Source: a virus
Lineage: Duplodnaviria > Heunggongvirae > Uroviricota > Caudoviricetes
Virus record (IMG/VR): IMGVR_UViG_2718217868_000004
Coordinates: 1-49,788 of that record
Direction: 5' to 3' (one strand)
Length of the DNA: 49,788 nucleotides
The notes under the pieces are model-generated. The model saw nothing but the letters and a program-made list of their open reading frames with translations. It made no database searches and had not been told where the DNA came from. Shown here in pieces: positions 11,990 through 31,148 of the stretch (its first letter is position 1; each line of letters starts with the position of its first letter). The position numbers and the translations under genes were made by a program.

Positions 11990-14900
11990 TTACTTTTTCA
12001 CAAAGCGGCCACCAATCGCTCCATCATCTCTGATTGCTCTGACGATGCCTTCTTGGACATACTGCTTCACACGATCAGCCAGCGCGCGAGCAGCCGCGTC
12101 ACCACCACCGCTGGTATTTGCAGTCGCGTTACCTTTGTTATCGACATAAATATCAACGTTGATTTGATGTCCGGAACCACCAGCGCCTTGGGCACGCACA
12201 CCCAACCGCCCTGCTGAATCTTTAGCTAACGGCATAATAGCTTCCGGCCCTGCCTCTCCAAAGACGCCGCCCTTGGCAAACTTAGAGGCCCCCTGGAAGG
12301 AGAAGTATTGCGGGGAATCATAGACACCGTTCACATACTGGTGAAGGCCCGCTGATTCGTAGACACCACCCTTAGCATTCCTGACTGGCCCGACGAAATC
12401 TGGACTGCCGATACCGCCACCTTGAGGATTTGAAGAGCCACTTATCCACCCCATTGCCGCCTGCACCGCATAGGCCACCATGAGGCGGTTCGTCACATCA
12501 AGGATCATCTTGAGCATGGATTTGCCAAACTCTTTAACCGACGCAGTGCCGGTTGTCATGAGTTCGGTTAGCATGTCGGACAATCCTGTCAAAGTGGAGC
12601 TGGCAACGTTCTTAACGGCGTCGTATGTATTGGTAGCAGCGTCGAGATATTCATTCCAGCCACTTACCGCACCTGCTTTCCAGTCGCCCCGTAATTTGTC
12701 CTCTTCGGCATAATATTTCCTGAGAGCCGCCAGTTCTTTTTTATAACCGGCATCGTCAAGCTTACCGCCACCGTTGAGCCAGCCCTGGCGAAGCTGCGCC
12801 TCTTCCATCATGCGCTGCGTTTGCCGACTGCTGAGACCTGCACTATCACGCAATGCATCGGTTTTTTCCGACATCTGCGTGACGTATTTATTCGCCTGCT
12901 GCGCCAGGCCGTTAATCTTCTGCTGCGCCTCTACTTCCTTGTTCTTCTGATCCACCACCTTGGCGGCGTTCAGAATGGCCTCACGGCTCGACAGTAGAGA
13001 TTTCTCCTGGGCGGTCAGCGCGCGTGTTTTGGCAGCCTCATCCAATTCAGCAAAGCGAGATTGCTGTTTGCTGAATTCGGTATATCTGACCTGAGTCTCC
13101 CCAGTCTTGCGCAACGTTTCGAGTGTTTCAGTTAACGTTCTGGCCTGGGCGCGGTAGTTCTCAAGAGTGCGATCGCCAGCATCCAGCGTGGCTTTTGCCT
13201 CTTTGGTCTTTTTGGCTGAGTCTTGTGCAAGCTTCGAGACTGCGTCTCTTGATTCTCGACTTGTTCCTCCATCACCTTTTACGTTAGACCCTCGCGCTTC
13301 AGCCTCATAGTTTGCCTGTGCGTTAGGCGCAGTGACGCGCTTCCAAAGCTCGTTATAGCGTTTTTTGTTCGCCTCAATCTCTTTGTCCGCCTCCGCTCCA
13401 GCCTTTTTCATTGCCTCAACGTCCATGCCGAGGAAATTAGCCAGCGCACCGCCACCCGGGATTTTGTCTGCCCAGCCAGCGATGGTGCTGGTGAACTTGG
13501 CGTCCAGAGAGGTGATATTGAGGAACAAGTCTTTGATCGAGGATTTAACCAGTTCGAAAATATCAATGATCTGGTTTCCCCATGCGCGCACGGTAATACC
13601 TATATCGCCAAAGGTGTCAGAAGCGCTCTTTTTAAGGTTTTCCCACGTTTGACCGATATTATCGGTCGCTTTGTTGGTCTCCTCTGCGCGCTTTGCCATG
13701 ACGCCTGCAAACAGCTCAATAGCTTCGGTAACAGCCGCCTGCTCACCCTTCTGCTTACGTAGCTGGATAATGTGCTTGATCATGGCTTCATCAACGAAAC
13801 CATATTGTTCATTGAGGCTGGCAAGCCCTTTAACCGGATCGCTGACAATCTTTCCGAAGTCGCTTATTGCCGCTTTGGTATCATTTCCGGCCTTACCCAT
13901 GAGGGTGATGGTCGTTGCGACCTGCTTCATCTGGCTTGCGGTATATTTGCCAGTATCATTCAACGTAACCAGCGTATCGACGGTGGAGCTAATCGATGTA
14001 TTCGTCTTGCCAGCCACTTCCTCAGCGGCCTGGTTGAGCTGCTGCATTGAGGAGAAGCCAGCCCCACCCATCATGATGACAGAGCGTGCCACCTGCTCAA
14101 ATTGCTCCGAGGAGTTATACGCTGCGGCAGCCAGCAGGCCGATCGTGCCAATCAGCCCACCAAGTGCGATTGTGGTAGGGTTAATCATCCCAGCCATGCT
14201 GCGGATGTATTCGCCGACGCCGGACAGCGCCCCCTGAACCGAGCCGAACTGGTCTTTAATCTGCCCGCCCTGTTGCAGCAGAATCAGGAACGGCGACTGA
14301 CCGCCAGCCAGCTGCGTGGCGATATCGGTGAATTGCGCCGGAAGCGTGCGCATTGCTGCGCTGTACTGACCAACGGAGATTCCAGCGCGCCGGGCAGCAG
14401 CTTCCTGCCGGGATAGCGCCTCTGGTAGTACGTCAGCGACACCAGAGAGGCGCTCACGCGTCTGGTTAAGGATTGTGTTGAAGTGCTCGAACTGAGCACC
14501 GTTAATGCGCCCAGCTTCGAAATGTGCCACCAGCTGTGCGTGCTGTTCATCCAACGAATTGAACGCGCGGATAGTCGGGTCGATGGATCCAAGAAGGTTC
14601 TTTAACGCTGCGGACTGCTTCTCTGCCGCCTGGGTAGCGGCTAATTCGGCCTGAGCACGCGCCGCGGCTTCTCCGGTGTCGGTCAGCTTGAGGCGGGTGT
14701 CATCCAGGATTTTGTTGTATGCCTGAAAGGTATCGGTATCCAGGAAACCTTTGGCCTGGAATTTCCGCAGCGATTCTTGCTGCTCATCCAGGCGGTTTAA
14801 GGCCTTGGTAACCGGGTCGATATTCTCCAGCAGCCCTTTGAGCGCGTTCTGCTGCTCCTTGAGTCCTTCGCTGCCTTGCTTCGCAGATTCAGCGCCAGCG

Positions 14901-25457: not shown

Positions 25458-27029
25458 TTAGAGCCTCAGGCTGGTGACTTTGCCGACTTTCTTCGGCGGT
25501 GAATGTAGGACGGCATAGCGCGTGCCATCCCAATCGTGATCTTCCTGCTGTGTGTCTACATCGTCAGGGTTCTTACTGTCGCGAACGAGAACCGGAACAC
25601 GGCTAATCCAGCCCCGGCAGTAGTCAAACACGTAGAATGCTGGTTTCTCTGGCATACCTGATTCCAGCTTCTTGCCCTCAATGACGGCCTCCAGCATGTC
25701 AGCAAACAGTGCCGCGCCGTTCACGCGTGAACCCGGCTTCTTGTTGGATGGCACCCATTTAACGCCCTGGGATTCCATTTTCTGGGCAATAGATAATTCG
25801 TCATCACCGGTGTTGTAGATAGCCCCGTCAGCAGGTCCGGGAACAACCTTCTTGCAGATACCGGGCATGATGTTCAGCTGCCCCTGCGTCACCCCGTTGA
25901 GTTTTATCTCCTCAGGCTCAGCAAGCTCCTCTCCCACCAGACGCTTATCAATCCACGCCACGCCCTTAGCAACGTTGGTGGATGACATATTCAGCCCTTT
26001 GTTCAGCTCATCAGGCGGGCAGCCGTACCACTCGCCAATGAGGATCAGCGACCCGGCAGGCGGGCAGAACTGGCGACCATCAGGCAGCTCAGCGGCAGTA
26101 CCGTCAGCCCGCGCCCACCAGAGGTTGGAGAACGGCTTCGATTCTCCCCAGTCATGAGAGCGGTCAACCGTCCAGCTATCGGGAATGCGGAACGGCTTAA
26201 TCACGTGATGCGAGGCATTCCACAGATGGTCAAAGCGACCACCGCTGGTGACATCCCATGAACCCTCAACCCATGCTTTTCGCCGGTTCGGGTCTTTAAT
26301 CGCCATCAACGTTGCAATGTACTGCGGGTCGAGGTACGGGTTCTCTTTAAACGAGCCATGAATAGCCACTCGCGTCAGCGTCACGTCCTCTTCTCGCTCG
26401 GTCTGAGGGTTAAACACCTTTTGTGTTTCGCGAATGATGGTGCCGCGCGGCGCAGGTTCGATGAAACGCTTCTTCACCCAGGTATGGCCGATACCGAATG
26501 GGTTGGTCGTGCTGAATGTTTCGAGCGGGATTGGCTTCAACAGACCGCCGTTAGCCAGCGGGTAGTTCTCCGGCCGGAACGATGAGCGCCGGCAGGAGAA
26601 CATCATTTCGTAGAACTCAGCAGACTGCTGCTTTGTCAGCTCGTTAAAGCCGATGAACGGGAACTCCTGACCGTGGTAATCCCAGTAATCCCCCTCTTCC
26701 TTCCCAAAGCGGAACAGCAACTCTTCGCCAGTCGGCCATACCCAGCGCAATTCAGATGCTGACGCCAGATAGCGTGCACCGTCATTAAACAGGCGATACA
26801 TACGCTTTGACTGGGTAATGATGTCGGTGAGGTTTTTATACTCGGTATCGAAAATGACGCCACGCCAGAACGAGCCATAGCCCAGACCAACCAGGCGACG
26901 AAAGCGCGCCAGTTGCGCGGCGGTTTTACCGGGGCCTCGCGTACCTTCGTAGAGGATTTCGTTACACGGGCAACTCAGGGAGAGCGATTGCGATCCCGGC
27001 AAAGGTTTCCAGACGGCTTTGTAATTCAT
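25458..27029 (-). CDS. Terminase large subunit
   Basis: 523 aa, Walker A-like GTRGPGKT near the N-terminus; overlaps the small-subunit stop. Confidence 0.9.
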   Translation of the reverse strand: MNYKAVWKPLPGSQSLSLSCPCNEILYEGTRGPGKTAAQLARFRRLVGLGYGSFWRGVIFDTEYKNLTDIITQSKRMYRLFNDGARYLASASELRWVWPTGEELLFRFGKEEGDYWDYHGQEFPFIGFNELTKQQSAEFYEMMFSCRRSSFRPENYPLANGGLLKPIPLETFSTTNPFGIGHTWVKKRFIEPAPRGTIIRETQKVFNPQTEREEDVTLTRVAIHGSFKENPYLDPQYIATLMAIKDPNRRKAWVEGSWDVTSGGRFDHLWNASHHVIKPFRIPDSWTVDRSHDWGESKPFSNLWWARADGTAAELPDGRQFCPPAGSLILIGEWYGCPPDELNKGLNMSSTNVAKGVAWIDKRLVGEELAEPEEIKLNGVTQGQLNIMPGICKKVVPGPADGAIYNTGDDELSIAQKMESQGVKWVPSNKKPGSRVNGAALFADMLEAVIEGKKLESGMPEKPAFYVFDYCRGWISRVPVLVRDSKNPDDVDTQQEDHDWDGTRYAVLHSPPKKVGKVTSLRL

Positions 27030-27514
27030 CCACCAAGAACCTCGCTCTGCTGTTTCTGTGCTGCTGCTTCCCAGTCGTCGACGTTATCGCAGGACGGGAC
27101 CGGCATAACGTTATGGGTGGCAACAACGCTTTGCTCAACCTTCTGTTTGTTGGTGTAGACATCCCCAACTTCTTTTGCTGCCTGTTCGAGAAGCTGAGCT
27201 GTCATGCCGAGGTTTTTCATGTTCTCTGCGGTCACAGACATTCGTTGCAGTACGCGAAGCCGATAAGCCTTATTAGCGATCGGGATTTCTGCAATTTCCG
27301 TCTGGAAGCGCTCGCGGGTTTCGTTGAACATCTCGACCCATTTTTTCGCCAGACCTTTGCCGTTTGCTTTCGTCGGGTCGTGAGATTCAACCTGCTGACG
27401 GGGGATCGTGATGCCAAATTCTTTTTTGACGGCATCGACCACTTGCGACGGCGTGTCGAAGCATGCAAGCGATTGAACGATAAACGCTTTCACCTCTCCC
27501 TTTAATGCAGCCAT
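27026..27514 (-). CDS. Terminase small subunit
   Basis: 162 aa directly upstream of and overlapping the terminase large subunit. Confidence 0.7.
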   Translation of the reverse strand: MAALKGEVKAFIVQSLACFDTPSQVVDAVKKEFGITIPRQQVESHDPTKANGKGLAKKWVEMFNETRERFQTEIAEIPIANKAYRLRVLQRMSVTAENMKNLGMTAQLLEQAAKEVGDVYTNKQKVEQSVVATHNVMPVPSCDNVDDWEAAAQKQQSEVLGG

Positions 27515-27545
27515 CGCTTACCGCCTGTCATAATCAGTCAAAAAT

Positions 27546-28184
27546 TCACGCCAGTCTCAGCATGCACGTCCCGCACGCTCTGGCGATGTTAAGTTTTGCC
27601 ACCTCTGCAGGTTGATTGGCTGCGTCCACCAGTTCTTGCACTTCAGTGCTCGCCCCGTATCTACGCACAACACCGACAAATTCTTCGACGTCGTGGCCGC
27701 GCAATGTCAGTACCGGTTGCCCGGTCTCTTTGTTGAACTTAGGTGCGCCGAAATCATCGGTGGCCTGGGCAATGTGGTAAAGCTCATGCTCTACCAGGGC
27801 GCAGAATTCAAGGTCGCTGCATTGTGAGCAGTAGTCGGCTGCCAGCGTGATGATGAACTTCGGGATGCGTCCGAACCATTCATACATCTGCTGTTCCATT
27901 CTGGCCTTCTGCCAACCACCTGCGCGGAGCATTACCTGTTCGGCCTGTCCGAGAACGTAGCGCCCTTTCTTCGCGAATGAGTCAGAAGCCCACATAAAAC
28001 ACAAATCAGCTTCCATTAAATGGGCGTGGTCTGGGTTATGGATGCTTCCGCTATCGCTGAGGATTTGATGGCTTATCCAGTCAAGCACTTCATTGGCGGG
28101 AATCAATCTGGTGTAGGGCTGCCAGTTATCAGGGCCAATGAAATTAACTGGTGGAAGTGGCCTGCGCTCGTCTTCGTTCACCAT
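27546..28184 (-). CDS. Zincin-like protein with HExxH motif (putative metallopeptidase)
   Basis: ALVEHELYHI motif; adjacent paralog-like HExxH protein; upstream of terminase in the late operon. Confidence 0.5.
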   Translation of the reverse strand: MVNEDERRPLPPVNFIGPDNWQPYTRLIPANEVLDWISHQILSDSGSIHNPDHAHLMEADLCFMWASDSFAKKGRYVLGQAEQVMLRAGGWQKARMEQQMYEWFGRIPKFIITLAADYCSQCSDLEFCALVEHELYHIAQATDDFGAPKFNKETGQPVLTLRGHDVEEFVGVVRRYGASTEVQELVDAANQPAEVAKLNIARACGTCMLRLA

Positions 28185-28187
28185 GAG

Positions 28188-28574
28188 TTAATCCTGTTTT
28201 ATATACGGCAAAAATGCCGAAAACATTCTGTCGAGCAGATAGCAGTAGGTTTCGTTTGCGTCTTCCGGCTTGGTCGTTACGCCCACATCAGAGCAGACGT
28301 AAAAACATACGTGAGCGCATTCGTGAACGAGAGTTGATATCTGCTGATCGAATACTCCAATCAGGTAAACTCGCTCTCCCGTATCGGTGTTTTCATAGTT
28401 GTTTGCCAGTCCACAGTTGAATGGCCTTTCCTCTCCGCTACCACCAAGGAATTTATCAGCGTGCTGAAACTGTTCTCTGGTTGTTGCGAGGTAGACATGC
28501 GCACTTTGAAACAGCGGAATGGTGAATGCCGGAAGTCTGTGCCATTTGGCTTTTGCCATCTGTTGCTCCGTCAT
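28188..28574 (-). CDS. Zincin-like protein with HExxH motif (putative metallopeptidase)
   Basis: TLVHECAHV motif in the same hydrophobic-LV-HExxH context as the neighbour. Confidence 0.5.
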   Translation of the reverse strand: MTEQQMAKAKWHRLPAFTIPLFQSAHVYLATTREQFQHADKFLGGSGEERPFNCGLANNYENTDTGERVYLIGVFDQQISTLVHECAHVCFYVCSDVGVTTKPEDANETYCYLLDRMFSAFLPYIKQD

Positions 28575-28658
28575 TATCCGTTGCAGGGGTTATTTTTGAT
28601 TTATCCGCTCAGGGGGATATCCATTATCAAGCCCACCAGCAGGTGAGCTTTGGAATGG

Positions 28659-28859
28659 CTACTGGCGGTCATTATGCTCGTAACGAGATACCGTCTTCCC
28701 GTTCTGGTTCATCACGTAGGCGACCTCGCCAGGTTTCAGGAATACATTTTTGTCCATTCCCGATACCGCGATGCTCTGCTGCCCCGGATTGAACCCTACA
28801 CTCAACCCGCAATGAATCTCTTCGCCGCCACCAGGCGACATTACTTTTACTGTTAACAT
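28659..28859 (-). CDS. Hypothetical small protein
   Basis: 66-aa ORF with AGGAGAAG RBS, just downstream of a terminator. Confidence 0.45.
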   Translation of the reverse strand: MLTVKVMSPGGGEEIHCGLSVGFNPGQQSIAVSGMDKNVFLKPGEVAYVMNQNGKTVSRYEHNDRQ

Positions 28860-28886
28860 ACTTCTTCTCCTGCTTCTTCTGGTCGT

Positions 28887-28910
28887 AAAAAAGCCCCGCT
28901 AATGCGAGGC
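28887..28910 (-). terminator. Intrinsic terminator, GCCCCGC-N4-GCGAGGC family
   Basis: Same stem sequence as the copies near 11457 and 30758, with a U-run on the minus strand. Confidence 0.5.
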
Positions 28911-28938
28911 TAGCTTTCTTTCTGCTTCGGTAACGCCA

Positions 28939-29103
28939 TCAGGCATCGCTTGCAAGCTCAACCAAATCTTTGAAGTCCTGGCACATATCCAGTCGATGAC
29001 CATGATCATCGACAAAGTTATAACTTTTGAATAGCTCTACGATTTCCTCGGGACTCTTCCCATTCAAACGAGGAAACTGCTTTGATTCGTCAACCTGTTT
29101 CAT
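28939..29103 (-). CDS. Hypothetical small protein (track ORF extends to 29199)
   Basis: Internal ATG with GGAGA RBS; overlaps the start of the plus-strand KTSC gene only slightly. Confidence 0.35.
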   Translation of the reverse strand: MKQVDESKQFPRLNGKSPEEIVELFKSYNFVDDHGHRLDMCQDFKDLVELASDA

Positions 29104-29297
29104 CTTCAAATCTCCAATCAGTAGGTTATGACCAGGCCACTTCGACGCTGGAAATTGCATTCCATAGCAGTGGCATTTATCAATACTCTCGGGTTCCATC
29201 TACCGTGTACACGGCACTAATGAATGCGTCGTCAAAAGGCCAGTATTTTGATGCCCACATCAAAAAAGCTGGCTACCCTTATCGCAAAGTTGGCTAA
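29082..29297 (+). CDS. KTSC domain-containing protein
   Basis: 71 aa; VSSSNLQSVGYD...LEIAFHSSGIYQYSRVP matches the remembered KTSC domain pattern; opposite strand to the late operon. Confidence 0.55.
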   Translation: MIRQPVSSSNLQSVGYDQATSTLEIAFHSSGIYQYSRVPSTVYTALMNASSKGQYFDAHIKKAGYPYRKVG

Positions 29298-29300
29298 CAG

Positions 29301-29867
29301 CTAGCGGGGATTCGTCCCCGCTTTTTGCCAGATCCCGTTATTTGACTCTCTCACCGAGTCGTAAACGCGCTCACACGTCATTCCTGCCCGGTAGCGTTCG
29401 TCAGCGATTCCAGCATATCGTTTAGCTTCTGCTGCAATATCTCCGAGCATGTCGGCAAGCAATCCTGCGTTGGTGTCGGTTGTTTTGCTTCGGACGGTAG
29501 CGGCAAGATCTGCGGTGTGCTTTGCGGCATCCAGGTGGATGGCAAGTTTTGTTGCTTCGGTGCGCAGCTGGCTAACAGTGGCAGACAGACCAGCAGCATT
29601 CGCAGCTGCTTTTGCAGCCTGTTCTTGTGCATTTTTAACAGCCTCATCGCGAGCAATTACACGCCCTTGTTCAATCATACGGGCAACCGTTTGAGCGTTC
29701 TCTGCCTGAGAGGACTCCTCACTATTACGATCTGCCCATTTCTTTTCCCATGCTCGTTCCGTCCACACACTACCTGCGGCGAATGAGGCAATGAGAAGCG
29801 CTGAAACCGTGGCGGCTTTCCACCAGGTCTTAACAGACTCGCTGATCATTGGTCTAACCCCCAGCAC
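29301..29867 (-). CDS. Rz-like i-spanin
   Basis: 188 aa with N-terminal TM and Ala/Gln-rich coiled-coil; overlaps the endolysin stop; contains an embedded lipoprotein ORF. Confidence 0.75.
29378..29632 (-). CDS. Rz1-like o-spanin embedded in Rz in another frame
   Basis: Embedded ORF with signal peptide, lipobox LLASC and Pro-rich mature region. Confidence 0.6.
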
Positions 29868-30394
29868 GCCAGCGCGCTTTCCTGGTCCCGTCGCTCAACC
29901 TGACCATAGCAGCCATTCTTCTGGCCTTTGGTTAGACGGCAATCACGGCCACCGTCTTTAATCCACCAGCGGATTGCCTCGCATGCACCGATGCGGTCAC
30001 CTGCGTTGATGCGCTTATAGAAGGTCGATGGGAAGCATTTACCGGGGCCGATGTTATACGGGCAGAAGGATGCAATACCCACCTTCTGTGGTTCGGTCAG
30101 TGGTACTTTGATATTTCGGTCAACCCACGCCAGCGCCTTGTCGCGTTCAATGGCGTTTACCTGGGCGCATTTCTCAGCTGACAGCTTCATGCCCTGTACT
30201 ACTGGCTTGCCATCAACCATTGTTGCACCACGGCAAATGGTCCAGAGTCCGCCGCCGTCGCGATATGCTGTCAAGCTGTTACCCTCTTTCTCATCCAGAA
30301 ACTGATCGAGAATCACGGGTGCGGAAGCCCCGGCAAGAATCAAACCAACGACCGCTGCGCTCAATTTATTCTTCAGCTTTAGAGACATAGCCAT
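29846..30394 (-). CDS. SAR endolysin (T4 lysozyme-like, GH24)
   Basis: N-terminal signal-anchor-release helix followed by E-8aa-D-5aa-T catalytic motif ([16 protein letters not shown]). Confidence 0.85.
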
Positions 30395-30644
30395 TGCGCC
30401 GATCCTCCCGTTCTTTCCAGCGGAAATACCAGTTCACTGCACAGGTGATTACCGTGCATGCGATACCGACAATAATTGCCCAGTCGCTCAGGCTTAACCC
30501 TGCAATTCTGTCGGCCAACATCCAGGACACCTCTTTTGCTGTTTTTGCTGTTTCGGCATATGCCTTCGCTGATACACCGCAGCCGGTCAGCGTGGTGCCT
30601 GTTCCATATGAAAGTCTGCTGTAAATGGTGCTCATTCTGGTCAT
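30366..30644 (-). CDS. Holin (likely pinholin partner of the SAR endolysin)
   Basis: Small membrane protein with TM segments immediately upstream of and overlapping the endolysin. Confidence 0.65.
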   Translation of the reverse strand: MTRMSTIYSRLSYGTGTTLTGCGVSAKAYAETAKTAKEVSWMLADRIAGLSLSDWAIIVGIACTVITCAVNWYFRWKEREDRRNGYVSKAEE

Positions 30645-30757
30645 AGCCTCACCTCCGATTCTTCGGATGGCGCTGTGTGTGTATGAAAAGGGTCAGGCTT
30701 CACGGGCTGGATTTATCAACAAAGCACGTAGCGGATGATTCCCGTGAGGCCTGAAAT

Positions 30758-30781
30758 AGAAAAGCCCCGCATAAGCGAGGC
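30758..30781 (-). terminator. tR'-like terminator between Q and the lysis genes
   Basis: GCCCCGC-ataa-GCGAGGC hairpin plus U-run on the minus strand, roughly 370 nt downstream of the Q stop. Confidence 0.55.
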
Positions 30782-31148
30782 TATAAATTCTTTGCCACTT
30801 CCCGGAGTGGCCACGCTCATGCCCTTGAGGTGCTGTCGCGTCATCGCCGCTGATAACCGGTGCGTATCTGGCATTCACGCTGCTTTACCGGAGCTTATTT
30901 TGATCTATGAACCCTTACCCATCACTACACAGGCTCGCCATTACGCGACTCGGGGCAGCATCATGACTGCTGCAGTGCCTTTCGACTGCGGTCTGTCCGT
31001 TCTACCCGTGCATTTTCTTACCCTCCAGAAACGCAAAAGCCCCACGGTGTTATCCGCGGGGCTTGAAACGAAGGCATTAACCCATCGTTGGGATAAAATT
31101 AACACAGATTCGGGAAAAGTAAATAGCTGGAATTAACTTCCATAGCCG

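Follow-up and report, generated by a model that had tools for sequence, protein, structure and literature searches.

Two HExxH genes of a lambdoid prophage

The window, by which we mean the whole stretch of 49,788 nucleotides (nt) of the virus record IMGVR_UViG_2718217868_000004, carries two adjacent genes, here called orfA and orfB, each encoding a protein with an HExxH motif. The source element is an Escherichia coli lambdoid prophage with both genes on the minus strand in its late operon; the 2.3 kb around them are 100% identical to a chromosomal prophage in E. coli strains H5 and H6. The initial annotation had described a tandem pair of probably related, metallopeptidase-like proteins at a moron hotspot. 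Both open reading frames (ORFs) lie on the minus strand at the positions then given, with their motifs, and coordinates and RefSeq annotation agree in placing them between the lysis cassette and the terminase genes. The association of orfA with terminase genes across proteobacterial phages, reported below, is the only finding here that adds to existing annotation; both families are already catalogued. The two genes, their conserved residues and the terminase genes are laid out as follows (aa, amino acids; TerS and TerL, small and large terminase subunits).

27546 to 28184, minus strand: orfA, 212 aa; PF18894 'PhageMetallopep'; RefSeq WP_073464672.1, 'putative metallopeptidase'; PHROG 513
28020 to 28028, minus strand: H53-A-H55 of orfA, within a conserved N-P-D-H-x-H
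27774 to 27788, minus strand: H133-E-L-Y-H137 of orfA, the HExxH motif, conserved in 180/180 relatives
27681 to 27695, minus strand: H164-D165-V-E167-E168 of orfA, with H164, D165 and E168 conserved in 180/180
27564 to 27575, minus strand: C204-G-T-C207 of orfA, a C-terminal CxxC, about 99% conserved
28188 to 28559, minus strand: orfB, 123 aa; PHROG 1365 / HK620 HkcC / ST64T Orf-129 family
28188 to 28574, minus strand: longer reading of orfB, 128 aa from an in-frame upstream ATG at 28574
28251 to 28256, minus strand: N107-E108 of orfB; E108 is invariant and lies 20 residues after H88
27515 to 27545, minus strand: spacer of 31 nt from the orfA stop to the TerS start
27026 to 27514, minus strand: TerS, the probable small terminase subunit, 162 aa, of which the N-terminal 103 aa are DUF2280 (PF10045)
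25458 to 27029, minus strand: TerL, 523 aa, its start overlapped by the end of TerS

The most likely start of orfB is the ATG at 28559 (MAKAKW..., 123 aa), because it is preceded by a GGAG at a distance of 6 nt, because the homologues open with MAK... and because the RefSeq protein has 123 aa.

In orfA the motif lies in the peptide ...CALVEHELYHIAQ... (HELYH, residues 133–137, codons 27774–27788 of the minus strand), and in orfB in ...STLVHECAHVCF... (HECAH, residues 84–88 in the 128-aa numbering, codons 28311–28325, likewise minus). A six-frame translation of the window gives 343 segments of 60 aa or more; four HExxH motifs occur among them, and no others than those of orfA and orfB are in real genes. 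Composition-preserving shuffles produced the motif with probability 0.015 for orfA and 0.009 for orfB. Given these probabilities and the scarcity of the motif in the window, its co-occurrence in neighbouring genes is not noise, in agreement with the initial annotation.

The same proposal went on to derive kinship from a shared sequence context of the two motifs, and here it failed. The resemblance is superficial, LVEHELYH and LVHECAH being in different register, and the profiles do not align. BLASTP of orfA against orfB found no homology (best E 0.8); hhalign of 64-sequence close-family profiles gave 0.3% probability over 8 columns, and with profiles chosen for their diversity (A6 against A5) it gave 2.4%, the alignment lying off the motif. 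The two proteins also differ in length and in their sets of conserved residues. To judge from sequence and profiles, orfA and orfB are not paralogues but members of unrelated families.

Distribution tells the same story. We assembled 320 loci with an orfA homologue, comprising three viral sets of 80 (240 in all) and 80 genomic loci, and scanned them with our own hidden Markov models; the viral sets were chosen by similarity to the window protein, to an Acinetobacter homologue and to a Rhizobium-phage homologue. A relative of orfB accompanies orfA in 13 of the 240 viral and 2 of the 80 genomic loci, so that the pair is not a unit, and relatives of orfB occur without orfA in P22, HK620 and ST64T. 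The 13 viral cases are all among the 80 loci closest to the window, where the upstream orfB alleles are either about 60% or 95–100% identical, and orfA at 99% identity is found paired with orfB alleles of 60% or of 100% identity. That the two are diverged paralogues acting jointly as a two-gene metallopeptidase moron (an anti-defence protease, a processing enzyme or a toxin) is therefore very improbable to us, and the reading is largely refuted by distribution and profile comparison. Hydrophobic residues just before both conserved motifs, the co-orientation of the genes 3 nt apart, and the possibility that both are gluzincin-like with a Glu on the following helix speak for such a pair; the missing similarity, the differing lengths and conserved residues, the co-occurrence in just 15/320 loci, the solitary orfB relatives in P22, HK620, ST64T and N4-like phages, and the mismatched alleles speak against it. 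The finding of a related tandem protease moron thus dissolves into two genes of catalogued, uncharacterised families.

orfA and the terminase genes

orfA is a member of the named family PF18894 (E 4.7e-43; 146.9 bits, the gathering threshold being 23.7; positions 2–134 of the 134 in the model) and is already a 'putative metallopeptidase' in RefSeq. The family is large, with 3684 clusters at 90% identity from a single-sequence search and 5416 from a profile search, and orfA homologues are present in 144 phage records from Acinetobacter, Pseudomonas, Klebsiella, Vibrio, Burkholderia, Rhizobium and others. The gene matches the full model of PF18894 and belongs to PHROG 513. The one paper to name PF18894 counts it among accessory genes and gives no role, and we found no functional study in the literature on PF18894, DUF2280, COG4900, hkcC or metallopeptidase-plus-terminase combinations.

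PF18894 genes are often labelled 'transposase' or 'putative transposase', as in JQ177065 (ZF40), HQ201308 (ENT47670), EU307292 (Bups phi1) and NC_031098 (TRS1); PHROG 513 itself is labelled 'transposase' in the category 'integration and excision', and one phage record labels its PF18894 gene 'toxin'. The transposase label seems to be a propagated misnomer, and the sequence gives no support to it or to the toxin label.

The gene immediately downstream of orfA proved nearly always to be the same, a gene for a DUF2280 protein:

Viral contigs nearest to the window protein: orfA followed directly by a DUF2280 gene in 80/80
Viral contigs closest to the Acinetobacter homologue: directly downstream in 79/80; the remaining one leaves no room for it
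Viral contigs related to the Rhizobium-phage homologue (49–90% identical): directly downstream in 79/80
Bacterial genomes of alpha-, beta- and gammaproteobacteria: directly downstream in 73/80

Thus DUF2280 lies directly 3' of orfA in 238 of 240 viral and 73 of 80 genomic loci (311/320), and phages of Acinetobacter, Pseudomonas, Vibrio, Burkholderia and Rhizobium share the order orfA homologue, DUF2280 protein of about 155 aa, TerL, the DUF2280 part making up residues 1 to 100 of the second protein. The gap between the matched domains of orfA and TerS is 34–38 nt in enterobacterial-type and 61–65 nt in Acinetobacter-type loci. The flanks beyond the pair vary: the upstream neighbours of orfA in the viral loci fall into 97 homology clusters, and the gene after TerS, TerL, falls into two large clusters without a BLAST link between them. 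TerL was assigned to Terminase_3 in one phage and Terminase_6 in two, and is unassigned in the window. Counted genus by genus, the phage records with orfA (144) and those with a DUF2280 TerS (145, being 326 minus 181 from Salinibacter) nearly agree.

The DUF2280 protein is the probable small terminase subunit, because its end overlaps the start of TerL, its C-terminus resembles the annotated TerS of phage HK639 and, in the window, it matches PHROG 5334 'terminase small subunit'. It is modular. Its N-terminal approximately 129 aa vary between 59 and 100% identity among the 80 closest loci (L002–L081), and its C-terminal part tracks the type of TerL, which is the same as that of the window in only about 19 of these 80. 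The HK639 protein that the C-terminus resembles is itself not a DUF2280 protein.

Most loci that break the DUF2280 rule still have orfA shortly upstream of other terminase genes. In two of them (L218, L325) orfA is followed by a different small protein of GRKxG type in the TerS position, and in a short PHB04-like subfamily (L085, L255, L256, L258) it lies 0.4–2.8 kb upstream of a GpA-type TerL, with a protein of some 230 aa before it in L255 and L256. For L256, Pfam confirmed that TerL is of GpA type. A natural in-frame fusion of orfA to DUF2280 (P0242, 374 aa) occurs on four independent metagenome contigs (L335–L338, ENA gut). It reads through a linker of 11 residues (WFYTALYGRWV) in place of the stop codon and spacer, and its sequence is identical across the four assemblies.

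orfA is accordingly a near-constant, fixed left-hand neighbour of terminase genes across phages of Proteobacteria, keeping its place beside unrelated types of terminase as a terminase-associated gene would. It is not a moron: patchy presence, the mark of such genes, was not observed (144 against 145 records outside the Salinibacter phages, position fixed in 311/320 loci). The moron label of the initial annotation thus suits orfB, with its patchy presence and variable slots, and fails for orfA. We found no paper describing the position of the orfA family before the small terminase gene.

Within orfA, H55, H133, E134, H137, H164, D165 and E168 are kept in 180 of 180 unique relatives, and the same residues are kept among relatives just 34–59% identical; an N-terminal RPxPP is conserved as well. 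E168 stands at the start of the next predicted helix after HExxH and is a candidate third metal ligand. The site would be a gluzincin-like zinc site in which E134 is the general base and the third ligand is E168 (or H164/D165), and H53/H55 together with C204/C207 may hold a second, structural metal. A Cys4 zinc site of C119, C122, C204 and C207 was also considered and was rejected, C119 and C122 being replaced in many relatives. The best structural neighbours of the model, which is a poor one, are M48/M56 peptidases (BepA, HtpX, Ste24, BlaR1) and minigluzincins (proabylysin, projannalysin, selecase), with Spartan ranking low. In these enzymes, as in the predicted structures of orfA and orfB, the helix that comes after HExxH bears a conserved Glu. 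The families to which the initial annotation had pointed gave no orfA match in Pfam searches with E up to 1 (SprT-like, PF10263; ImmA/IrrE, M78; Lit, U49; DUF4157).

The nearest precedent for such a gene is found in other phages. According to a passage in PMC13595956, citing Kala et al. 2014 (PNAS), HNH proteins encoded beside the terminase genes of HK97-like phages are needed for cos cleavage. The HNH endonucleases of these cos phages, like orfA, are small, metal-dependent (as predicted for orfA), encoded directly upstream of the terminase genes and widely conserved; some Acinetobacter phages have both, an annotated endonuclease (called HNH in part of the records) standing beside orfA before TerS. 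The two differ in their folds, a beta-beta-alpha-Me finger in HNH proteins and a predicted HExxH zincin-like fold in orfA, and the phages differ too, those with orfA having TerS-TerL-portal-MuF-type modules unlike the HK97-like HNH phages.

Since orfA is the fixed left-hand neighbour of terminase genes, we propose for it the role of an accessory hydrolase in the DNA-packaging module. Translated from the Q-antiterminated late transcript just ahead of the small terminase, it would act on a protein (or DNA–protein) substrate at or before the initiation of packaging. In genomic position, and possibly in logic, it would correspond to the HNH proteins that HK97-like phages encode. This assignment of orfA as a terminase-associated accessory hydrolase is predicted from position; it is our best guess and less likely than not. 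The broader version is more doubtful: by analogy, PF18894 as a whole might be an unrecognised, widespread packaging accessory, a zincin-like hydrolase working with the small terminase as HNH proteins do.

Several observations weigh against a packaging role. The argument for it is one of gene position, positional and not mechanistic. In 181 Salinibacter phage records a DUF2280 TerS occurs without orfA, which indicates that a TerS of this type can work without it. Among 4686 pairs of loci whose orfA proteins are at least 95% identical, 1665 have TerS N-domains less than 80% identical; this mismatch of alleles points to free recombination and speaks against a physical partnership specific to alleles. 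In one genomic locus (L259) orfA has no recognisable terminase genes beside it. The protein is acidic (isoelectric point 5.1), its AlphaFold model is poor (predicted local distance difference test, pLDDT, 62.8), and sequence and diverse family profile searches of the PDB returned no solved homologue. The weakness of the model arises because a deeper diverse-profile search again gave mostly sequences of 70–90% identity.

The phages in question infect Salinibacter ruber (phage 1_1 with 180 sister records), and their DUF2280 TerS is 38% identical. A hidden, divergent orfA was searched for upstream of it and was not found; the neighbour there is a predicted membrane protein, of 172 aa with several hydrophobic segments. 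An apparent signal that orfA is more conserved than TerS was discarded, because the locus sets had been chosen by orfA similarity and were biased in that respect.

The same observations lend weight to a different reading, in which orfA is a late protease acting on a host protein, for anti-defence or takeover, and its linkage to the terminase genes reflects joint inheritance of the entire left end of the structural module, without any part in packaging. The Salinibacter TerS that works without orfA, the shuffling of orfA and TerS alleles relative to each other, the acidic protein with no evident DNA-binding domain and the literature mention that treats the family as accessory all fit this reading. 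Accessory and anti-defence genes are, however, normally patchy, whereas orfA keeps its position in 311/320 loci while its other flank is ever-changing; it lies upstream of terminase genes even where TerS and TerL belong to different families, and it has been fused naturally to TerS. PADLOC models also gave nothing relevant for orfA, though their library holds defence and not anti-defence proteins. We regard an anti-host protease as possible, if doubtful.

A third role, that of a virion-maturation protease for head proteins such as the portal, a MuF-like minor head protein or the scaffold, is improbable. It would suit the expression of orfA at the head of the structural operon, in a prophage whose P22-like capsid module has no recognisable prohead protease annotated. 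But prohead proteases are of other families and are usually encoded in the interval from portal to capsid gene, heads of the P22 type are not known to need proteolysis, and orfA is found with different head modules.

It is also unlikely that one or both HExxH proteins are not peptidases at all but metal-dependent nucleases or RNases on a zincin-like scaffold, of which YbeY is an example, or non-catalytic metal-binding adaptors. The invariant His and Asp residues of orfA beyond a mononuclear site (H53, H55, H164, D165) would agree with this, as would the lack of a confident zincin fold match for orfB; the Glu of HExxH, the general base, is kept in every member of both families, and both proteins are acidic, which argue the other way.

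Were orfA to belong to the packaging machinery, it would bring a new class of enzyme to terminase biology and would help to interpret the DUF2280 small terminases, themselves unstudied. The PF18894 family would then be a packaging accessory of temperate phages numbering in the thousands, whose hosts are Enterobacterales, Pseudomonas, Acinetobacter, Vibrio, Burkholderia and alphaproteobacteria. The lead in any case concerns a very common 'putative metallopeptidase', often misannotated as a transposase, that is tied to terminase genes in temperate phages of clinically important hosts.

orfB, a small accessory HExxH protein

orfB is a member of PHROG 1365 (E 1.8e-36). An exhaustive profile search gathered 663 clusters at 50% identity, nearly all of them stand-alone proteins of 110–140 aa. 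In 64 relatives 24–51% identical to orfB, G55, H84, E85, H88 and E108 are invariant, and G98 and Y112 are also conserved, so that the HExxH motif is retained throughout both families (180/180 for orfA, 64/64 for orfB), in line with the expectation of the initial annotation. Its signature is HExxH-x19-E-x3-Y, Y112 lying one helical turn beyond E108. A Glu 20 residues past the second His is the thermolysin-type (gluzincin) spacing. orfB defines a family of minimal HExxH-x19-E proteins that has no Pfam entry.

The structural model of orfB is confident (pLDDT 86.4; predicted template modelling score 0.80). Its elements follow the order beta-beta-alpha-beta-beta-alpha-alpha, with HExxH on the sixth and E108 starting the last helix (108–125). 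The modelled order is zincin-like, as expected for a zincin core, and E108 is a candidate third metal ligand; the gluzincin signature, HExxH with a downstream Glu on the next helix, is thus present. Other results weigh against reading orfB as a zincin. It reached no Pfam family, and a global fold match to solved zincins was not obtained (best Foldseek E 0.099; Spartan E 0.5). The lack of a promoter or terminator of its own, noted when orfB was compared with morons, also counts on this side. The family profile searched against the PDB found only myroilysin (E 0.023), and PDB sequence searches returned nothing significant.

Among the families that had been suggested, none was reached at threshold by either protein; SprT-like (PF10263, the group of the DNA-dependent metalloproteases Spartan and Wss1) came closest, as a sub-threshold match of orfB only. 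That match was local and weak (E 0.062; 13.6 bits against a threshold of 25.6), covered the HExxH helix only, and recurred in 11 of 64 relatives with E of 0.009 or worse. Spartan is a low-ranking structural match for both proteins, and the third His of the SprT-like HExxHx5H is absent from both. ImmA/IrrE (M78), Lit (U49) and DUF4157 gave no orfB match in Pfam searches with E up to 1, and the PADLOC defence models gave nothing relevant for orfB either. The NCBIfam aKG-HExxH hydroxylase was rejected, its score of 16.4 bits being below the cut-off of 40.

Relatives of orfB are found in several slots. ST64T Orf-129, 56% identical to orfB, lies between lysis gene 15 and gene 3, and the mEp044 relative follows the lysis genes, so that these two and orfB share the gap between lysis and terminase genes. 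HkcC of HK620 (34% identical) and the P22 relative lie instead in the sieA–mnt or gene 16–tailspike region, between sieA/hkcB and mnt or the tailspike gene, and the relative in the N4-like phage phCDa heads a cluster of small genes. The same HExxH...NE is present in orfB, Orf-129 and HkcC. The G+C content of orfB is 46.8%, against 53.1% for the window; that of orfA is 53.7%.

An intact ORF of 121 aa in P22, homologous to orfB and HkcC, is unannotated in NC_002371.2 and BK000583. It lies at about 13861–14226 of NC_002371.2 (L089, 2513–2878), between sieA and orf59a/mnt, keeps HECAH and NE, and has the orientation of the late operon; elsewhere among P22-like records it appears as a hypothetical protein. 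The mEp044 relative (L253, 3001–3585) is annotated with 195 aa, about 70 residues beyond the family norm, which reflects either fusion to a C-terminal extension or an artefact of annotation.

With its low G+C content and variable positions, orfB looks like a facultative accessory gene of the late operon that moves horizontally, and of the two genes only orfB behaves like a moron. Its presence is patchy (13 of the 80 close loci, in two allele classes) and its composition deviant; a promoter or terminator of its own, as a moron would have, was not found. It would probably be a small cytoplasmic zinc peptidase whose target is a host or a competitor protein.

Both proteins are plausibly zinc hydrolases, whose metal binding and catalysis are predicted. 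The metallopeptidase-like character given to the pair by the initial annotation has thus survived in part, in that the motifs are real, conserved and probably catalytic, and has been given up as regards a shared origin. We see the locus as holding two unrelated metal-hydrolase-like genes, orfA a proposed accessory of the packaging module and orfB a mobile, probable small peptidase, which phage mosaicism would have placed side by side; to this combined account we give an even chance.

The late transcript and neighbouring genes

The lysis cassette and the terminator-like hairpins upstream of orfB are placed as follows.

30366 to 30644: holin, lysis cassette
29846 to 30394: lysozyme, lysis cassette
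29301 to 29867: Rz-like gene (DUF2514 in RefSeq), lysis cassette
28892 to 28911, minus strand: terminator-like hairpin that follows the Rz-like gene and a small ORF and precedes the orf66-orfB-orfA-terminase block
30763 to 30782, minus strand: terminator-like hairpin upstream of the holin gene, a near-twin of that at 28892–28911

RefSeq gives the order on the minus strand as antitermination (Q-like), holin, lysozyme, DUF2514 Rz-like, three small hypotheticals, a 123-aa hypothetical (orfB), 'putative metallopeptidase' (orfA), DUF2280 protein, terminase, portal (DUF4055), minor head protein and P22-type major capsid.

No sigma-70-like promoter was found in 26900–30800, and no terminator directly flanks orfB. 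With a Q-type antiterminator gene upstream and no local promoter, orfA and orfB are probably read on the antiterminated late transcript. The expression with the late operon that the initial annotation had assumed is borne out to this extent, both genes being co-oriented with the operon and the region having no promoter-like site. The region shows no enrichment of terminator-like sites (7, where 4.5 ± 2 would be expected), and the hairpin at the orfA stop (27547–27564) is one of this unenriched class.

The two near-identical hairpins share the form AGCCTCGC-loop-GCGGGGCT followed by a T-run, and the one at 30763–30782 sits where a terminator proximal to the late promoter is expected. A plus-strand gene with a KTSC domain (29082–29297) is embedded in the minus-strand late operon and overlaps, convergently, a small minus-strand ORF (28939–29199; PHROG 18255) that RefSeq annotates with 54 aa.

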